A stretch of 64,000 nucleotides of DNA. Source: Escherichia phage UPEC06. The stretch is taken from sequence record MW250786; one strand, written 5' to 3'. Below the pieces are notes generated by a model that made no database searches, was not told the origin of the DNA, and saw only the letters and a list, made by a program, of their open reading frames with translations. The position numbers were made by a program, and so were the translations under genes. This document shows positions 2,251 to 43,095 of this stretch, piece after piece (the first letter of the stretch is position 1; the number at the start of each line of letters is the position of its first letter).

Positions 2251-3885
2251 ATGGCTAGACCAACAACACCGATTGTTGTCTTTGCGGCACAAGATGTTAA
2301 CCTTCCTGGCACTGGAAGACCTAACAAATCAAAACCGATTGATGACCTTTTAGCGAAGGGCTATGACAAAGGACAAAAACCAGCGGCAGAGGAATTCAAC
2401 TATATTCTTCACCAATCTGGTGCTTGGCTTAACTGGATCGTAGAAGAGAAGTTCCCTGAAGTTGAAGAAGAATATAAGCGACTGATTCAGGAACTCGAAA
2501 CACGAGTAAACAATCAACTGGAAGTTATTCGTGAAGATGTTGCAAACGTAAGACAATCAGTTGCAACCTTGAGAACTTATGTAGAGCAAACTGTTGCAGA
2601 CATTCGTCGTGAGATCACTGCGGTTGATCAGCGTGTTACTCGTTTGTCTCAAGACTTGGATAATGCTGTTTCCAGATTAAACGCCCGTATTGATGAGCTT
2701 GAACCTCGTTTAGTTCCGATCGGTGCAATTCTTACTTGGGCAGGCCAAACACCTCCGGCGGGATTCTTGGAATGTAATGGACAGGTATACAGTACATCTC
2801 AAAACCCGAAACTTTATCAAGTCCTTGGTAGGAACGTAGTACCTGATTATCGTGGATTGTTCCTTCGTGGCTGGGCGCACGGATCTGGCGCTTACGATCC
2901 TGACTCTGGTCGTGCTTTGGGTTCTATTCAAGGTGATGCGATTCGAAACATTACTGGCGCGATGGGTTACGAAAGTATTCGTACTGACCACGGATATCGT
3001 GAGAGTGGTGCACTTTATACGCAATATAACTCAAACTCAGGTCCTGATCACGATCGTAAAAACCCAGCGGGTGATGTTCGATTTGATGCAAGCCGTGTTG
3101 TTCCGACTGCACCAGAAAACAGACCTAAGAACGTCGCAGTGATGTATATTATCAAGACTGATCAGGCACAAGGTACGGGAAGTCTGTCACCAACTGCACT
3201 TGTTACTACGCCGGACACTATTACAAACCGCGTAGGGTTTACTCAAGGGATTTCTGCTCAGGTTCTCCCTGCAAACTTGGCAAGTCAATACCCTGTGACG
3301 TGGACTTCTCAGAACGGTAATGTTGCAACAGTGGATAGTGCAGGTAACGTAAGATTAACTGGTCCAGGTGAAACTAACATTATCGCCTCTATCTCTACTG
3401 GTATCTCTGCCCAAGTTAAAATAGTTTCATATACACCACTGACAGCAATCAGTATCGGTAGCATACCTAGTGTAGAGGTTAATGATTCCGAGGTTATTCC
3501 TGTTAATAGAACACCTGCTAACTCTAACGAGCCTCTCGTGTATTCTACCAGTAATGCTAACGTCGCTGTTGTAACTCAAAGCGGTTACGTATCTGGTGTT
3601 TCTCCAGGTACAGCGGTAATAACAGTTCGTGGGTCTATCACAGGCATCCAAGCCACAAGACAGGTCACTGTAATTCCTGCAACGATTGTTCAGACCATAG
3701 AGGATGTTCGTTTAGGTCTTGAGCAACAGACGACAATGAATGGCGATGATTATACAAATCCTGTGCGTGCTCCGGCGGGTTGTGTTATTACTGGCGTTGT
3801 ATCAGCAGGTCTTGGGTTAAATCAAGGTTATTATAAACCGATCCAGAAGCGTATATCTGGCGTATGGGTAACGGTGGAGGGTTAA
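2251..3885 (+). CDS. tail fibre protein with phage tail-collar domain and C-terminal Ig-like (Big_2-type) repeats
   Basis: Motif LTWAGQTPPAGFLECNGQ...YQVLG...DYRGLFLRGW typical of tail-collar domain; N-terminal coiled-coil; C-terminal VTWTSQNGNVATVDSAGNV Ig-like repeats. Confidence 0.7.
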   Translation: MARPTTPIVVFAAQDVNLPGTGRPNKSKPIDDLLAKGYDKGQKPAAEEFNYILHQSGAWLNWIVEEKFPEVEEEYKRLIQELETRVNNQLEVIREDVANVRQSVATLRTYVEQTVADIRREITAVDQRVTRLSQDLDNAVSRLNARIDELEPRLVPIGAILTWAGQTPPAGFLECNGQVYSTSQNPKLYQVLGRNVVPDYRGLFLRGWAHGSGAYDPDSGRALGSIQGDAIRNITGAMGYESIRTDHGYRESGALYTQYNSNSGPDHDRKNPAGDVRFDASRVVPTAPENRPKNVAVMYIIKTDQAQGTGSLSPTALVTTPDTITNRVGFTQGISAQVLPANLASQYPVTWTSQNGNVATVDSAGNVRLTGPGETNIIASISTGISAQVKIVSYTPLTAISIGSIPSVEVNDSEVIPVNRTPANSNEPLVYSTSNANVAVVTQSGYVSGVSPGTAVITVRGSITGIQATRQVTVIPATIVQTIEDVRLGLEQQTTMNGDDYTNPVRAPAGCVITGVVSAGLGLNQGYYKPIQKRISGVWVTVEG

Positions 3886-3887
3886 TT

Positions 3888-4400
3888 ATGAGAATGAATA
3901 ACTTCAAGCTTTATACACCGGAAGTTAAATCTTTCGGAGAAGGAGTTCAGTATTTTCAGGATGATAAGGGTCGTGATTTCTACGACTCTCGTGCACTATT
4001 CAAAAAGAAATATGTTGTTTTCTTTGATGAGCATAATATTGTCCGTGGCTGGGCAAAGAGTGAAGAAGTTACCCGTCTTCACCCAGGTGGTTTATCTGTT
4101 GTGGATCTTAATACCCTCCCTAAAGATTTTTCTTTGCAAGGTGGTGTTTGGTCATTCAACGGAAAACAGGTAGTTAAGGCAGACTATGATCCTGCTTTTA
4201 GCACCGCTGCAAGAAAGGCTGGCATTCTGCAAGTGATCGGTTCTGTTATCGTTCCGCTTCAGGATGCTGTTGAATTGGGAGATGCTACAGATGATGAGCT
4301 TGAGAAGTATAACGATCTTCGTAAGATGAGAGTTAAAGTCATGCGTATCCCTGATAGCACCTCCCCTGGTGATATCGACTGGTCAGAGTTCACCTTTTAA
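3888..4400 (+). CDS. tail fibre assembly chaperone (Tfa-like)
   Basis: Resembles Tfa/P2 gpG N-region (FDEHNIVRGWAKSEEVTRLHPGGLSVVDL); start moved to ATG 3888 with GGTGGAGGG RBS, track start 3864 overlaps upstream gene. Confidence 0.6.
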   Translation: MRMNNFKLYTPEVKSFGEGVQYFQDDKGRDFYDSRALFKKKYVVFFDEHNIVRGWAKSEEVTRLHPGGLSVVDLNTLPKDFSLQGGVWSFNGKQVVKADYDPAFSTAARKAGILQVIGSVIVPLQDAVELGDATDDELEKYNDLRKMRVKVMRIPDSTSPGDIDWSEFTF

Positions 4401-38161: not shown

Positions 38162-38508
38162 TTTACCTCCATCATAAATACTTTAACTTTTCGTACCTCT
38201 AATCTTACTTTATTAGAGCCTTGAAGTCTATTTCTTTTTTCAATTGCGTCATTAATGTCGCCATAGAAGTAGTGATCCTTACCTATTGTTGGTATTCCAT
38301 TGCCGCCTTGCATAGCCAGTGTATACATTTCTTTTCCACCTTGCAACCCTTTTGATACTTTTTCTTCAAAATATTTATTGAATTGGGTTGGTGAAGTGTC
38401 AATTTCTACATCATCTTCCCATCCCATAACTTTATCCCAAAAACGGTCAATCTTGTCAAGAACTTTGTTACTAATCTTTTTAATCTTCTTCAACATAATC
38501 TTCCCCAT
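38158..38508 (-). CDS. hypothetical protein
   Basis: 116-aa basic ORF. Confidence 0.4.
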   Translation of the reverse strand: MGKIMLKKIKKISNKVLDKIDRFWDKVMGWEDDVEIDTSPTQFNKYFEEKVSKGLQGGKEMYTLAMQGGNGIPTIGKDHYFYGDINDAIEKRNRLQGSNKVRLEVRKVKVFMMEVK

Positions 38509-38968
38509 TATTTATTTGGATACCGAAACGATTTTCATTTGAAGAAAAGAAACCCATCTTCATCCGATCAATCTCGTGTTTCATAACTTCCTGCATCGTT
38601 AATTTAAGGATTTCTTTGTTTAATTTTGGCTTAACTTCACGGAGCTTGTCAAGAAGTTTTTCCATTTCTTCTTTTACTTTTTCTTCCTCATTTTCTATCT
38701 CTAATTGGTCCATTGCATCTTTACAAACACAGCAATGGCCCACAACTCTTAAAATATGATTTTGTATAGGTAATGCTTTTCTTCCACAATACCCACAAAC
38801 AATAGACCCACCGGAGTTTCGAGCATCCACTGTCAATGTAGGTTTGGCCCCTTCTGCCTGAGAATTCCAAGTCTTTTTGCCTTGATAATCAAACATAAAG
38901 AATTCGTAGGATCTTTCATCAACGTGATCTTCGAGCATATGTAAAGTTCTTGTATTGAAATGTTTCAT
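38480..38968 (-). CDS. hypothetical Cys-rich protein (possible zinc-binding)
   Basis: 162 aa with CGYCGRK...HCCVCK cluster; first gene of - strand block at divergent promoter region. Confidence 0.45.
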   Translation of the reverse strand: MKHFNTRTLHMLEDHVDERSYEFFMFDYQGKKTWNSQAEGAKPTLTVDARNSGGSIVCGYCGRKALPIQNHILRVVGHCCVCKDAMDQLEIENEEEKVKEEMEKLLDKLREVKPKLNKEILKLTMQEVMKHEIDRMKMGFFSSNENRFGIQINNGEDYVEED

Positions 38969-39004
38969 TTTTAAACCCTCGTTGTTTGTATGAGCTAACT
39001 ATAC

Positions 39005-39018
39005 GAGAACTTGAGAGG
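39005..39018. promoter_or_regulatory. GAGAACTTGAGAGG motif copy in divergent promoter region
   Basis: Same 14-mer as the iteron-like repeats at 47.94-48.11 kb; lies between divergent genes at 38968 and 39089. Confidence 0.4.
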
Positions 39019-39088
39019 AAGATCAATACTTGATTTGTATTTTATTTTCATTATACTGTGCACATCTAAAACAAGAAGGGGATAAGAA

Positions 39089-39652
39089 ATGAGTCAAGAT
39101 AAAGAGTTAGCCATTGCGATATCCGTAGCTGCTTCTGCCCATGTTGACCAAGTAGATAAAGGGGGGAATATCTATATTCTTCATCCTTTGCAGGTGATGC
39201 AAACATTGCAGCAAAAGGGAAGGGAAGATTTAATGGCAGCAGGAGTTTTGCATGATGTGATTGAAGATACTGAAATCACTATGGAACACCTCTTTAAAAA
39301 GGGGATTTCAGAAAGAACCTTAGTGATTGTCGATGCAGTGACAAAGAAACGTAAGCAATCTTCATCTGATTACCTAGAGGGGATTTTAGAGAGTGAGGGT
39401 GCTTGTCATGTTAAGCTTGCGGATCTTAAACACAACTTAGATATTCTGCGAACTTGTAGCACCACAGAAAAAGACTTGCAACGGGTCAGGAAGTATGTAA
39501 CAATGCACTTGTTGATTACGGAGATGGTTGATTGGTATGAAAGTATCGGAAGGTATCTCGATTATTGTGATTCTTTTGCCTATTGTAGCTATCTCGACGA
39601 ACGTAAAGAATTTGTTCAGAAACTTATTAAAAAATGGAAGGAGTTTAAATGA
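39089..39652 (+). CDS. HD-domain phosphohydrolase, SpoT/RelA-hydrolase-like (putative (p)ppGpp hydrolase)
   Basis: Signature AAGVLHDVIEDT with upstream His; 187 aa consistent with a stand-alone hydrolase domain. Confidence 0.55.
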   Translation: MSQDKELAIAISVAASAHVDQVDKGGNIYILHPLQVMQTLQQKGREDLMAAGVLHDVIEDTEITMEHLFKKGISERTLVIVDAVTKKRKQSSSDYLEGILESEGACHVKLADLKHNLDILRTCSTTEKDLQRVRKYVTMHLLITEMVDWYESIGRYLDYCDSFAYCSYLDERKEFVQKLIKKWKEFK

Positions 39653-40182
39653 AAAAGGTATTAAGTATCGAACCTTTCACAACAACATACTTTGACGATT
39701 TGGAACGTTACGGTGATTATGGGGTACAAGACGCTGATGGTTGGAAAGAATTCCCTGAAGAAACAAAAGGCCACATTACAAAGTTAGGTTGTAAGATTAA
39801 TGGATCTGAACCAAAAGGTGTTTACACCATGTTTTCTTTCCTTGAAGCTATGAATCCTACATACAAGGGGGATAGACAATTTGGTTTTTCTTTTGCATCA
39901 TTCCTTACTTGTAGTTGTGGTCATGGTGGTTGTGCGGGCTATCATGATAATGTGGTTATTCGACGTAAAAAGAATACCGTGATGGTCATGGGTAAAAAGG
40001 AAGATGGTTATGACGAAGGTGTTGTATTGACAGGTGAATCTGTTGTATACTTCGATAAAAAGCAGTGGGACGGTGTTCTAGAACACTACCTTAAACTCTT
40101 CAAAGAAAGTCCTGATGGTGTTTTTGAAGATGCGGGTTTTATGTTTACTGGTCGTTGGGGGACTAAAAATTTTTCAAAATAA
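39649..40182 (+). CDS. hypothetical protein
   Basis: 177-aa ORF, ATGA overlap with upstream gene. Confidence 0.5.
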   Translation: MKKVLSIEPFTTTYFDDLERYGDYGVQDADGWKEFPEETKGHITKLGCKINGSEPKGVYTMFSFLEAMNPTYKGDRQFGFSFASFLTCSCGHGGCAGYHDNVVIRRKKNTVMVMGKKEDGYDEGVVLTGESVVYFDKKQWDGVLEHYLKLFKESPDGVFEDAGFMFTGRWGTKNFSK

Positions 40183-40252: not shown

Positions 40253-41482
40253 ATGCAAGAAACTTATCAACGTATGGACCAAACCATGTTCAAAAAACGT
40301 ATCAGTGTTCGTGATATGGAATCACTGATTCGCCTGGGGGCTTCCATCGGAAAGACCGTATTCTTTTTTGGTGGTGCTGGTCTTGGTAAGTCTGAAAAAG
40401 TAAAACAGATCGCTGATTCCATGTTCCCACATCGTGTAGGTAATAACCTTTGTGATGTTCGTCTGTCGGATAAAGAGCCACAAGATATCGCAGGTATTCC
40501 GATTCCGATCTCTTATCCAGATCCGAAAACTGGTAAAGAAGTCACTCGTACCGTATACGCAGTTCCAAACTTTTGGCCTACTGATCCTGATTGGGAAGGT
40601 ATCGTGTTCCTGGATGAACTGCCAAATGCACCATTGGGCACTCAGCACTCTGCATATCAGGTTATTCTTGATCACGTTGCAGGTGAGCATAAGTTCCCGA
40701 AAGGTACTGTGTTTGTAGGTGCAGGTAACCGTGATACTGATGGAGCAGGGACTACTTCTATGCCTGGTCCATTGGTTAACCGTATGATCATTGCAGAAGT
40801 TGATTATAATCTGGATGTGTGGATCGAAGACTATGCGATTCCGTTCCGTCTGCACCCGAACATTATTGGTTTCTTGAAGCAGTTTCCAGAGCATTTCTAT
40901 ACTGGTGACGTAGAAAACCGAAGTACTCCGGTTTATTCATCTCCTCGTCAATGGAAAACAGCATCTGACATTCTGTACAAGTATGATGCGGGTGAGATTA
41001 ATGAATTTATCGCAGAGGTTGCTCTTGCAGGTACAGTTGGTGAAGGCTTGGAAGTACAGATCCTTGCTTATCACTTACGTGCTAAAGAACTTCCACCTAT
41101 TGAAGATATCTTCAGTGGTGCAGTGGAAGAACATAAACTTGATCGCAGCAAGAACGACCTTGTTTACGTACTGGCACAAACTGGCCTTCGTCGCATGGAA
41201 GATGAAGTGATGGATAATGATATGCCGGATGATAAGTTCCTTGAACGTGCAGGTAACTTCCTTACGTTCATGTACAATAACTATTATGCGAACAACAAGG
41301 ATACGATGATTGCTTTGATCTTGGGCGTGTTCCGTGGTCCAAACGATAAGCCATCTATCTTGACTGTTAACCCGAAACGTCAGAAAATGATTCCGCTTAT
41401 GCGTAAGAGTTGCCCGACTGTTTCTGCCGCAGTTATGGAATACATGACTCGCTATGGTCAACTGATTAAAGAATTCGAATAA
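40253..41482 (+). CDS. MoxR-like AAA+ ATPase (CobS/RavA-type)
   Basis: Walker A FFGGAGLGKS, Walker B IVFLDELPNA, sensor-like VFVGAGNR; RBS AGAGGAG. Confidence 0.65.
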   Translation: MQETYQRMDQTMFKKRISVRDMESLIRLGASIGKTVFFFGGAGLGKSEKVKQIADSMFPHRVGNNLCDVRLSDKEPQDIAGIPIPISYPDPKTGKEVTRTVYAVPNFWPTDPDWEGIVFLDELPNAPLGTQHSAYQVILDHVAGEHKFPKGTVFVGAGNRDTDGAGTTSMPGPLVNRMIIAEVDYNLDVWIEDYAIPFRLHPNIIGFLKQFPEHFYTGDVENRSTPVYSSPRQWKTASDILYKYDAGEINEFIAEVALAGTVGEGLEVQILAYHLRAKELPPIEDIFSGAVEEHKLDRSKNDLVYVLAQTGLRRMEDEVMDNDMPDDKFLERAGNFLTFMYNNYYANNKDTMIALILGVFRGPNDKPSILTVNPKRQKMIPLMRKSCPTVSAAVMEYMTRYGQLIKEFE

Positions 41483-41562
41483 TCTCTTGACAACGAAAAA
41501 CAGTTAACTTAATATAAGGGCATCTCGAAAGAGGTGTCCTTTTTTAATTTGGAGAAAATGAA

Positions 41563-43095
41563 ATGGCAAAACTGACGATTGAAGAAAGTAACATGATTGA
41601 AATGCAAGTCTCTGAAGCGGAACGTATCATTGAGGCTGCTAGTCTACAACTGATGCGTTTTAAACCCTTCTACGGGGTGATGCTTTCGTCTATGCCTGTT
41701 AAAAAGGCAACTGAGTGGTGCAGTACAATGGCGACTGATGGACGCAACCTATACTATCATCCAGAATTCATTGCAGGTATGACAGAAGAACGTAAAAAAT
41801 TAGTACTCGATCGACTTTCCAAATCTGAGTCCGATCCTAAAAAGCTTAAAGAGGCAACTGAATTTATTAATGTTTTTTATCGACGGAAGACCGCTCGTGA
41901 AGTTGCACTTATTCTTGAGCATGAATGTGATCATGTGATCTCTGATCACGCCTCTCGCGGTAAAGGATTTAATCATGAACTTTACAACATTGCAGCGGAT
42001 CATCGTATCAATACAACGGCTGTGCTTATTCACCAGAAAGGGGATGAGTTAGGTAAAGCCTGGTTCCCTGCCGGAGAGAGAACGGTATTTGATAAGAATG
42101 CTGAATTTGGATTTATGGCCTGGTCTTATTGTGACTTCCGATTCAAAGATATGTATACAGAGCAAATCTATGAAATCTTAAATAAAGAGCAGGACGATAA
42201 AGAAAAATCCAAAGGGGAAGGTTCTGGAAGTGGAAAAGGAGATGGTGAAGAAGGTGATCAAGGCCGTAAAGGTGTTGATCAGCACATGGACCCAAATGGT
42301 GATCCAGAAGATTCAGAAGATGATAGTATCGAAGATGCACTCGGAATCGACCGTAAAGCGAAACCTAAGCAAACAGCAGAGGAACGCCAATATAACGATG
42401 GGGTTATGCGTCGAGCCATTGAGAATGCCGTACAGGCAGCAGGAAGCGGTGCACCGGAAGATGCACGACGTTTTGTAGAGGCGGCAGGTAAACCAAAGAT
42501 TAACTATCTTCGTTTGTTGCGTAAAACTATTGAACGTCTGTTCAAAGATGATGTATCATATCGTCGTTTGTCACGCCGTAGTCACTCGTTAACTCGGACT
42601 CTCCGTAGCTCAGGTTACTTGTCTGGACGACAAACAATTGGTTTACCATCAAAGAATAAACAGAAGACTATCCGTGCAGGTGTTTTCTTTGATGTGTCGG
42701 GATCATTTAACGATGAACTGTTAAGACCAACAATGCGTGAGATTCGTGGATTGTGTAATCTTTACGACGAGTTTGAGGTCACGATGGCTTGCTGGTCAAC
42801 AAAGGTTGGTAACATTGAAACGTATACGAAGAAGAATGTGAATGAGATTGCTAACTATAAGATCAAGACCACATTTGGTACGGATGTTTCTTGTGTGTTT
42901 GAAGCATTAGATGAAATGAAAGACCCTATGGATCAGATCATCATCTATACTGACGGTTACTTTGCTGATGTATCCCAAAAGAAAGATTGGGCCAAAAAGT
43001 ATGGTAAGAATGTTCTTTGGATCATCCTGGGTCGTGGGTCTTCGTTCAATCCACCTTTTGGTAAAGCCATTGATTTTGACAAGTATCTTAAATAA
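41563..43095 (+). CDS. vWA-domain protein with N-terminal HExxH metallopeptidase-like motif (DUF2201-like MoxR partner)
   Basis: HExxH in ALILEHECDHVISDH; MIDAS-type DxSxS in VFFDVSGSF; acidic Gly/Glu/Asp-rich linker; directly downstream of AAA+ gene. Confidence 0.6.
   Translation: MAKLTIEESNMIEMQVSEAERIIEAASLQLMRFKPFYGVMLSSMPVKKATEWCSTMATDGRNLYYHPEFIAGMTEERKKLVLDRLSKSESDPKKLKEATEFINVFYRRKTAREVALILEHECDHVISDHASRGKGFNHELYNIAADHRINTTAVLIHQKGDELGKAWFPAGERTVFDKNAEFGFMAWSYCDFRFKDMYTEQIYEILNKEQDDKEKSKGEGSGSGKGDGEEGDQGRKGVDQHMDPNGDPEDSEDDSIEDALGIDRKAKPKQTAEERQYNDGVMRRAIENAVQAAGSGAPEDARRFVEAAGKPKINYLRLLRKTIERLFKDDVSYRRLSRRSHSLTRTLRSSGYLSGRQTIGLPSKNKQKTIRAGVFFDVSGSFNDELLRPTMREIRGLCNLYDEFEVTMACWSTKVGNIETYTKKNVNEIANYKIKTTFGTDVSCVFEALDEMKDPMDQIIIYTDGYFADVSQKKDWAKKYGKNVLWIILGRGSSFNPPFGKAIDFDKYLK

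Follow-up and report, generated by a model that had tools for sequence, protein, structure and literature searches.

A stand-alone small alarmone hydrolase of the Aph1 family in Escherichia phage UPEC06 and its possible role against toxSAS toxins

Background

Which nucleotide does a stand-alone HD-domain hydrolase of a lytic coliphage act on, and what could the phage use it for? This question is raised by the gene at 39089..39652 (+) in a stretch of 64,000 nucleotides from Escherichia phage UPEC06 (record MW250786), referred to here as the window. The source phage is a lytic E. coli myovirus of ~140 kb belonging to the Vequintavirinae. An earlier reading of the letters and their translated open reading frames (ORFs), hereafter the sequence-only reading, saw in the 187-aa product a SpoT-like hydrolase of the guanosine alarmones (p)ppGpp that could blunt the host stringent response or counter alarmone- or nucleotide-signal-based defences. 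Here we show that the protein belongs to the family of Aph1, a hydrolase of the adenosine analogues (p)ppApp, and that it is an orthologue of gp220 of Salmonella phage PVP-SE1.

Results

The gene and its conservation

The ORF at 39089..39652 begins with ATG and is preceded on the same strand by a Shine-Dalgarno-like AAGGGGA, read from the sequence at 39076-39082, 6 nt before the start codon; phage W70 has GAAGGAG at this position. The region is 93-97% identical to phages vB_EcoM-LTH01, A7_1, A5-4, A73 and W70, and all five of these E. coli Vequintavirinae relatives carry the gene (94.7-99.5% amino-acid identity), annotated there only as ‘hypothetical protein’. Comparison with the W70 copy revealed 26 synonymous and 12 non-synonymous differences, and the resulting ratio of non-synonymous to synonymous differences per site (pN/pS) of 0.12 shows that the gene is real and under purifying selection. 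All 26 synonymous differences from the W70 copy (locus L006, 701-1264) fall within codons 1-144 and none within the last 43 codons, while the amino-acid differences are bunched at residues 61-79. This uneven distribution suggests a recombination mosaic inside the gene.

No compositional anomaly or signal of horizontal transfer was found in the gene (GC 0.38 vs 0.33-0.40 in the flanks). Compared with Cronobacter phage CR8, the hydrolase is only 43% identical, whereas the flanking genes for an ATPase, a DUF2201 protein and a 177-aa protein reach 75, 64 and 57%, respectively; the hydrolase thus looks like an accessory gene.

Catalytic centre and fold

The HD signature that had been pointed out in the sequence-only reading, AAGVLHDVIEDT, occupies residues 50-61 (39236-39271), and the Pfam search recommended there assigned HD_4 above the gathering score (32.5 vs 27.2 bits, E 8.7e-8) over residues 10-91 only. 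The N-terminal stretch was also matched by NCBIfam RelA/SpoT models, among them the hydrolase-domain segment of TIGR00691 (E 2.7e-15), and the protein matched PHROG 990, ‘metal-dependent phosphohydrolase’ (E 1.7e-52). Pfam detected no synthetase or regulatory domain in the 187 residues; the additional matches were a sub-threshold hit of a general HD-domain model and a single one at chance level. The protein is therefore a single-domain HD hydrolase of the RelA/SpoT superfamily, i.e. a small alarmone hydrolase (SAH).

In alignments the catalytic core, residues 1-144 (39089..39520, +), is the counterpart of the whole of Aph1, and the codons for H55-D56-V57-I58-E59-D60, which contain the HD and ED catalytic motifs, lie at 39251..39268 (+). 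The metal ligands H32, H55-D56 and D112, the ED pair E59-D60 and N116 are all present. In an alignment of 62 sequences, H32, H55, E59, D60, D112 and N116 were invariant and D56 was kept in at least 90%. The AlphaFold2 model computed on the same alignment reached a predicted local distance difference test score (pLDDT) of 92 and a predicted template modelling score of 0.89. When this model was compared with the PDB by Foldseek, the four best matches were the four chains of Aph1 (7SMG; template modelling score, TM, 0.88-0.91 on the target, root-mean-square deviation, rmsd, 1.3-1.6 Å), followed by MESH1, PaSAH, SpoT, RelH and Rel, and the top 46 matches were all RelA/SpoT homologue (RSH) hydrolases of these six kinds. 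The sequence-only reading had named placement among dNTPases or cyclic-nucleotide phosphodiesterases as an outcome that would speak against an alarmone hydrolase; neither subfamily appeared in the Pfam, NCBIfam or PDB sequence searches or among the 32 Foldseek matches with E <= 0.001.

Assignment to the Aph1 family

Within the superfamily, the best sequence match in the PDB was again Aph1 (7SMG), with E 6e-22 and 82 bits over residues 8-143, followed at a distance by Rel hydrolase domains (~1e-11) and MESH1 (6e-8, 36 bits). A profile of the UPEC06 protein and 61 homologues widened the gap: Aph1 scored 191 bits (E 1e-55), any other Rel, SpoT, MESH1 or PaSAH chain at most 87 bits, and MESH1 64 bits. 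The likeness extends to the HD-free C-terminal segment of Aph1 that was used to define the Aph family (Y90-E143), as Aph1 residues 90-141 alone aligned to residues 107-140 of the phage protein with 47% identity (pairwise E 2e-8).

Aph1 converts pApp, ppApp and pppApp to AMP, ADP and ATP, and no hydrolysis of ppGpp by it was detectable (Ahmad et al. 2023, PMC10083569). The same study defined the Aph family by D24, R96, D116, R119, K133 and Y134, which (p)ppApp hydrolases keep and (p)ppGpp hydrolases do not; D24 stands where ppGpp hydrolases have a guanine-stacking arginine, R96 sits away from the active site, and Aph1 becomes able to hydrolyse ppGpp when D24R and R119A are combined (PMC10083569). 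A MAFFT alignment was made of the UPEC06 protein, Aph1, E. coli SpoT and homologues from phages and bacteria. At the six signature positions it has D23, G98, D118, R121, K135 and Y136, so that five of six are kept, including D23 and R121, the counterparts of the specificity-switch residues D24 and R119. At the positions of D23 and K135-Y136, E. coli SpoT has Arg and Arg-Glu, respectively, and at that of D118 its sequence is gapped. Likewise, the guanine-contact triplet is not matched, the phage protein having D23-K24-G25 vs R43-R44-S45 in TtRel and R-S-S in SpoT.

The enzymes thus compare as follows. SpoT/Rel, MESH1 and PaSAH have in common with the phage protein the HD_4 fold and the catalytic centre and match it well over its N-terminal ~90 residues; they differ by R-S-S or R-R-S in place of D-K-G and by lacking equivalents of D118 and K135-Y136, and SpoT and Rel are in addition multidomain proteins. 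Aph1, from a Bacteroides caccae prophage, is like the phage protein a single HD_4 domain (TM 0.91, rmsd ~1.5 Å, 33-34% identity) with identical metal, ED and Asn residues and five of the six signature residues. By sequence, profile and predicted fold, the hydrolase belongs to the Aph1 (p)ppApp-hydrolase family and is not SpoT- or Mesh1-like. Of the earlier assignment to SpoT-like (p)ppGpp hydrolases, the superfamily therefore stands, whereas SpoT-like specificity does not agree with the lead of more than 100 bits for Aph1, with D23-K24-G25 and with the retained R121.

Signature residues in viral homologues

Relatives of the protein are encoded in at least 501 IMG/VR contigs, and signature residues were counted in the best 80 of them; because these are the best matches to the UPEC06 protein, the set is biased towards Aph-like sequences. 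The metal, ED and Asn residues were present in 80 of 80. D23, R121 and Y136 were equally found in all 80 sequences, D118 and K135 in 77 each. The position of R96 is variable, with Gly in 19, Arg in 19, Lys in 17 and other residues in 25 sequences. Gly occupies it in all Vequintavirinae members examined, including CR8 and PVP-SE1 gp220, and also in the metagenomic homologue P0002.

Orthology with PVP-SE1 gp220

The hydrolase is 47% identical to PVP-SE1 gp220 over residues 1-154 (E 1e-44). Both phages belong to the Vequintavirinae, both genes are stand-alone, and gp220 has the signature residues of the UPEC06 protein including Gly at the R96 position. The window and PVP-SE1 have a syntenic block in common, consisting of a divergent junction, the HD gene and then a MoxR-type ATPase gene, and a like layout with the HD gene first past the junction is found in CR8. 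From identity and synteny, the UPEC06 gene is the orthologue of gp220. The two proteins differ at their ends, gp220 (169 aa) having an N-terminus 11 residues longer and no additional C-terminal helix; the gene before gp220 bears the annotation thymidylate kinase.

Stand-alone SAHs of two Salmonella phages, PVP-SE1 (PbcSpo) and SSU5 (PaSpo), were tested by Jimmy et al. 2020 (PMC7229694) against toxic small alarmone synthetases (toxSAS). Both neutralised five of five toxins, CapRel, PhRel, PhRel2, FaRel and FaRel2 (PMC7229694). Since tblastn detected gp220 as the only SAH homologue in the complete PVP-SE1 genome, the gene being single-copy there as in the window, we infer that the tested PVP-SE1 protein is gp220. 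The FaRel antitoxin ATfaRel, which neutralises all toxSAS classes (PMC7229694), and MESH1 are SAHs that restore aminoacylation of pyrophosphorylated tRNA. It was suggested by Jimmy et al. that incoming phages could bypass toxSAS defence via encoded alarmone hydrolases (PMC7229694). The counter-defence role considered in the sequence-only reading is accordingly backed by the published toxSAS neutralisation by the PVP-SE1 orthologue (PMC7229694).

C-terminal extension

Residues 145-187 (39521..39649, +) form an extension that is not in Aph1. According to the secondary structure of the AlphaFold2 model, the last core helix (residues 127-153) runs on to residue 153 and is followed by a loop (pLDDT ~69) and an extra helix at residues 162-186 (pLDDT 84-96). 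The extension also occurs in CR8, in contigs resembling CR3 and phiTE and in P0002, whereas PVP-SE1 gp220 and the majority of viral homologues (137-169 aa) lack it; the predicted extra helix is confined to a sub-clade of the Vequintavirinae. Compared with Aph1, a compact eight-helix tetramer, the phage protein has ~43 additional C-terminal residues with a predicted ninth long helix. The compact protomer of Aph1 assembles into the tetramer via its N and C termini, and in other SAHs an additional helix at the C terminus would cause a clash in this arrangement (Ahmad et al. 2023, PMC10083569).

A Cys-rich or zinc-binding motif in the extension was considered and rejected, as Ser replaces C166 in W70 and A7_1 and the CR8 extension has no Cys. 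The lysine-rich end is not kept in the CR3 and phiTE homologues either, so neither a metal- nor a nucleic-acid-binding role was assigned to the extension.

Occurrence in other phages

When phage records in GenBank were searched by tblastn, homologues were found in 292 of 50,697. The hosts of these phages include Aeromonas, Klebsiella, Streptococcus, Cronobacter, Vibrio and Salmonella, and the homologues are annotated as ‘hypothetical’, ‘metal-dependent phosphohydrolase’ or ‘guanosine-3',5'-bis(diphosphate) 3'-pyrophosphohydrolase’. Clustering of the neighbours at 57 distinct viral loci gave no conserved partner gene, the largest cluster comprising at most 6 loci.

Two arrangements were observed among these loci. 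At 6 of the 57, a protein with a Phage_Mu_F domain is encoded directly upstream of the Aph-like gene (for instance at 282-2636 of locus L087); it measures up to 785 aa across the six loci, and its C-terminal part is unassigned. This arrangement reproduces the setting of MuF toxin and Aph1 immunity gene in Bacteroides prophages, and the UPEC06 gene lies outside that setting. At one locus only (IMGVR_UViG_3300042869_000467, ~3001-4170), an Aph-like gene is followed directly, in frame past its stop codon, by a PolyA_pol-head gene (Pfam E 5e-18), a pairing of a possible 3'-pyrophosphate remover with a gene for tRNA 3'-end repair of the CCA-adding-enzyme family.

Divergent junction and transcription units

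The hydrolase gene is the first rightward gene past a gap of 120 bp, on the other side of which the leftward gene ends at 38968. All substantial ORFs are on the minus strand leftward to ~35.7 kb and on the plus strand rightward to at least 43.1 kb, and the sign of the GC skew flips at ~39.0 kb. A scan for consensus sigma70 elements detected two back-to-back candidates in the gap, TTGATT-16-TATACT at 39030..39057 (+) for the rightward genes and TTGATC-17-TATAGT at 38998..39026 (-) for the leftward gene 38480..38968, each matching 9 of 12 positions. Their hexamers are unchanged in W70, LTH01 and A7_1. Promoter-like sites in the 5-kb region were not above background (15 vs 13.2 in shuffles); because of this frequency, and because the compared phages are 93-97% identical, the rightward promoter is suggested by its position only. 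The description of the gene as the first one transcribed rightward from a divergent promoter region at ~39.0 kb is hence correct for the gene order, and for the promoter it is a matter of position.

The next gene, 39649..40182 (+), overlaps the hydrolase gene by ATGA at 39649-39652, and the two are probably co-translated. Further downstream, the genes for the ATPase (from 40253) and the DUF2201 protein (from 41563) are each provided with stronger promoter-like sites of their own, and between the two genes, at 41516-41541, lies a terminator-like hairpin with an 11-bp stem and a T-run. For these reasons the position at the head of an operon, as the gene had been described, is firm only for the bicistron with 39649..40182. 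The hairpin is directly adjoined by a strong promoter-like site, TTGACA-17-TAATAT at 41487-41515, and overlapped by a promoter-like site on the minus strand.

Neighbouring genes

The translationally coupled gene at 39649..40182 (+) encodes a 177-aa protein (phrog_8242) for which neither Pfam nor PADLOC gave a match. Its CR8 orthologue is 57% identical; PVP-SE1 has none, and the hydrolase therefore does not need it as an obligate partner. Four cysteines of the 177-aa protein are invariant, C48, C88, C90 and C95, with the motif TCSCGxxGCAGY, and its distribution is very narrow, with 2 cluster matches in 5.8 billion proteins in addition to the CR8- and CR3-like phages. AlphaFold2 on a 5-sequence alignment gave a pLDDT of 61, and four of the five models stayed below 40, which is too poor for interpretation.

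The subsequent genes encode a MoxR-like AAA ATPase (phrog_1297; 40253-41482, +) and a protein to which Pfam assigns a DUF2201_N domain (putative metallopeptidase) and a VWA-like DUF2201 domain (41563-43095, +). This pair is kept in CR8 (75% and 64% identity) and PVP-SE1 (38% and 40%). The label ‘HNH endonuclease’ given to the DUF2201 protein by PHROG 1314 and by the PVP-SE1 record looks like a propagated mis-annotation. On the other side of the junction, the first leftward gene (38480-38968, -; phrog_13698) encodes 162 aa with four cysteines arranged as CGYCG...CCVC; its CR8 orthologue is 38% identical, and it received no Pfam or PADLOC assignment. PADLOC defence models run on the hydrolase and four neighbours yielded chance-level matches only. 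ARAGORN detected no tRNA genes in the 64-kb window, so that any tRNA cluster of this phage lies outside it; the related PVP-SE1 has 24 tRNA genes and a tRNA nucleotidyltransferase.

Discussion

We consider it fairly probable that the UPEC06 protein is a 3'-pyrophosphohydrolase of the Aph1/PbcSpo branch that acts on (pp)pApp and/or the 3'-terminal A76 of tRNA and serves as an orphan, antitoxin-like counter-defence enzyme. In such a mechanism, a Mn2+ or Mg2+ centre coordinated by H32, H55, D56 and D112, together with E59-D60 and N116, would hydrolyse the 3'-pyrophosphate of adenosine nucleotides and convert pApp, ppApp and pppApp to AMP, ADP and ATP, with a predicted adenine-selective pocket of D23, D118, R121, K135 and Y136 disfavouring guanine. 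The same chemistry could strip the pyrophosphate that toxSAS of the CapRel, PhRel and FaRel2 types put on tRNA A76. By analogy with Aph1, for which the 5' phosphate count makes no difference, and because the tRNA 3' end is an adenosine, the phage enzyme probably acts on the 3'-pyrophosphorylated A76 of toxSAS-modified tRNA, an activity that would explain why the PVP-SE1 orthologue neutralises tRNA-targeting toxSAS. Expressed from the divergent promoter region like a type IV antitoxin lacking its toxin, the hydrolase would undo what toxSAS abortive-infection effectors or (p)ppApp-synthesising toxins have produced, and translation and ATP pools may thereby survive infection. The preference for these substrates, the activity on tRNA and the proposed role in infection are deduced from the family and from the orthologue.

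Several points weigh against this interpretation. The sixth signature residue, R96 of Aph1, is Gly98 in the phage protein. Whereas all 12 tested Aph homologues hydrolysed ppApp, 2 of the 12 had modest ppGpp activity, and the PbcSpo-type antitoxin ATfaRel was reported to degrade (p)ppGpp as well as ppApp; strict ppApp specificity of the UPEC06 enzyme is thus not guaranteed. An element like the predicted extra helix is said to clash with tetramer formation as in Aph1, so that the phage protein may depart from Aph1 in quaternary structure and possibly also in its regulation. Neutralisation of toxSAS was observed on co-expression of a 47%-identical orthologue from plasmids, the literature searched contained neither enzymology on this protein nor an infection-stage test of any phage SAH, and this phage group is not known to be restricted by any toxSAS system.

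A more specific version holds that the physiological substrate is not a free alarmone but 3'-pyrophosphorylated tRNA A76 made by CapRel-type toxins, which would make the protein a dedicated tRNA-repair counter-defence enzyme. We regard this as possible, though only as a tentative proposal. The near-invariant adenine signature of the Aph family would then reflect specificity for tRNA 3'-end repair, and the clade-specific C-terminal helix might change the oligomeric state so that a macromolecular substrate can reach the active site. Neutralisation of four tRNA-targeting toxSAS by the PVP-SE1 orthologue, the indifference of Aph1 to 5' phosphates and the one viral contig with a CCA-adding-enzyme-family gene behind the Aph-like gene are consistent with this proposal; the basic character of the extra helix, which is not kept in the CR3 and phiTE homologues, counts against it.

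Other substrates and roles have to be weighed against the hydrolysis of 3'-pyrophosphorylated adenosine. If the enzyme lowered host (p)ppGpp during infection, the stringent response would be blunted and rRNA synthesis and translation capacity would be kept high, as the sequence-only reading had envisaged. The common superfamily and the catalytic centre identical to that of the SpoT, Rel and MESH1 hydrolase domains are compatible with this, as are the ppGpp activity of 2 of 12 Aph homologues and the dual activity of ATfaRel, and several phage homologues in GenBank are labelled guanosine-3',5'-bis(diphosphate) 3'-pyrophosphohydrolase, although such labels are homology transfers and not tests. 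However, the guanine-contact positions hold D23-K24-G25, D23 and R121 are the pair that had to be mutated together in Aph1 for ppGpp activity, Aph1 itself has no such activity within detection, and the family profile favours it by more than 100 bits over every ppGpp hydrolase. With these residues and this margin, blunting of the stringent response is not supported, and we judge it unlikely. Even less probable is that the enzyme acts mainly, like MESH1, on another phosphorylated adenosine metabolite, for instance NADPH, 3'-phosphoadenosine 5'-phosphosulphate (PAPS) or a different 2'- or 3'-phosphorylated nucleotide, and remodels host cofactor pools with no toxin being countered. MESH1 has NADPH phosphatase activity and is the second-best structural neighbour, NADPH and PAPS complexes are among the Foldseek matches, and related Vequintavirinae carry extensive NAD-salvage genes; yet MESH1 matched far more weakly than Aph1 (36 vs 82 bits by sequence, 64 vs 191 bits by profile), the Aph-specific signature is kept, and ppApp was hydrolysed by every Aph homologue tested.

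Immunity to a (p)ppApp-synthetase toxin of the phage itself is the setting in which Aph1 was discovered, as protection from the MuF-fused toxin Apk2 encoded next to it in a temperate phage, and the Phage_Mu_F proteins upstream of Aph-like genes at 6 of 57 viral loci fit this role. For UPEC06 we hold it to be very improbable. The genes flanking the hydrolase have no RSH or MuF similarity, the genome is that of a lytic member of the Vequintavirinae and not of a temperate MuF-toxin phage, and the PVP-SE1 enzyme was called stand-alone by Jimmy et al. (PMC7229694). A tblastn search with the SpoT synthetase domain, which is insensitive to divergent toxSAS, gave no match in either the window or the whole genome of PVP-SE1.

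Hydrolysis of adenosine 3'-pyrophosphates as a counter-defence, the reading that we favour, has parallels in described systems. ATfaRel of C. marina, the type IV antitoxin of the toxSAS FaRel, is according to its published description an SAH that detoxifies by degrading the product and not by binding the toxin; unlike the stand-alone phage gene, it is encoded beside its toxin. The same logic of a lytic phage with a stand-alone enzymatic antitoxin homologue that reverses the covalent product of a toxin applies to AdfN and other phage NADAR enzymes, which act against DarTG1. Fold and chemistry are unrelated, AdfN being a DNA ADP-ribosyl glycohydrolase that reverses DNA ADP-ribosylation by DarT1, and its counter-defence role was demonstrated in infection (bioRxiv 10.1101/2024.07.11.602962).

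Altogether, the gene at 39089..39652, assigned from its ORF, pN/pS, HD_4 domain, match to 7SMG, AlphaFold2 model and Foldseek comparison, encodes a previously unannotated member of the known Aph/PbcSpo family of small alarmone hydrolases, with an experimentally characterised phage orthologue and minor clade-specific structural variation. From the residue-level assignment, the expected phenotype would be rescue from toxins that synthesise (pp)pApp or pyrophosphorylate tRNA and not an altered stringent response. Phage SAHs were proposed in 2020 as a route past toxSAS abortive infection, for which an infection-stage demonstration was not found in the literature searched, and a phage group that infects E. 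coli K-12, with an unannotated, single-copy and stand-alone gene, offers a tractable system for this idea. Beyond UPEC06, the ~290 phage GenBank records with homologues labelled ‘metal-dependent phosphohydrolase’ or ‘ppGpp pyrophosphohydrolase’ can be re-read as encoding probable Aph-type enzymes.

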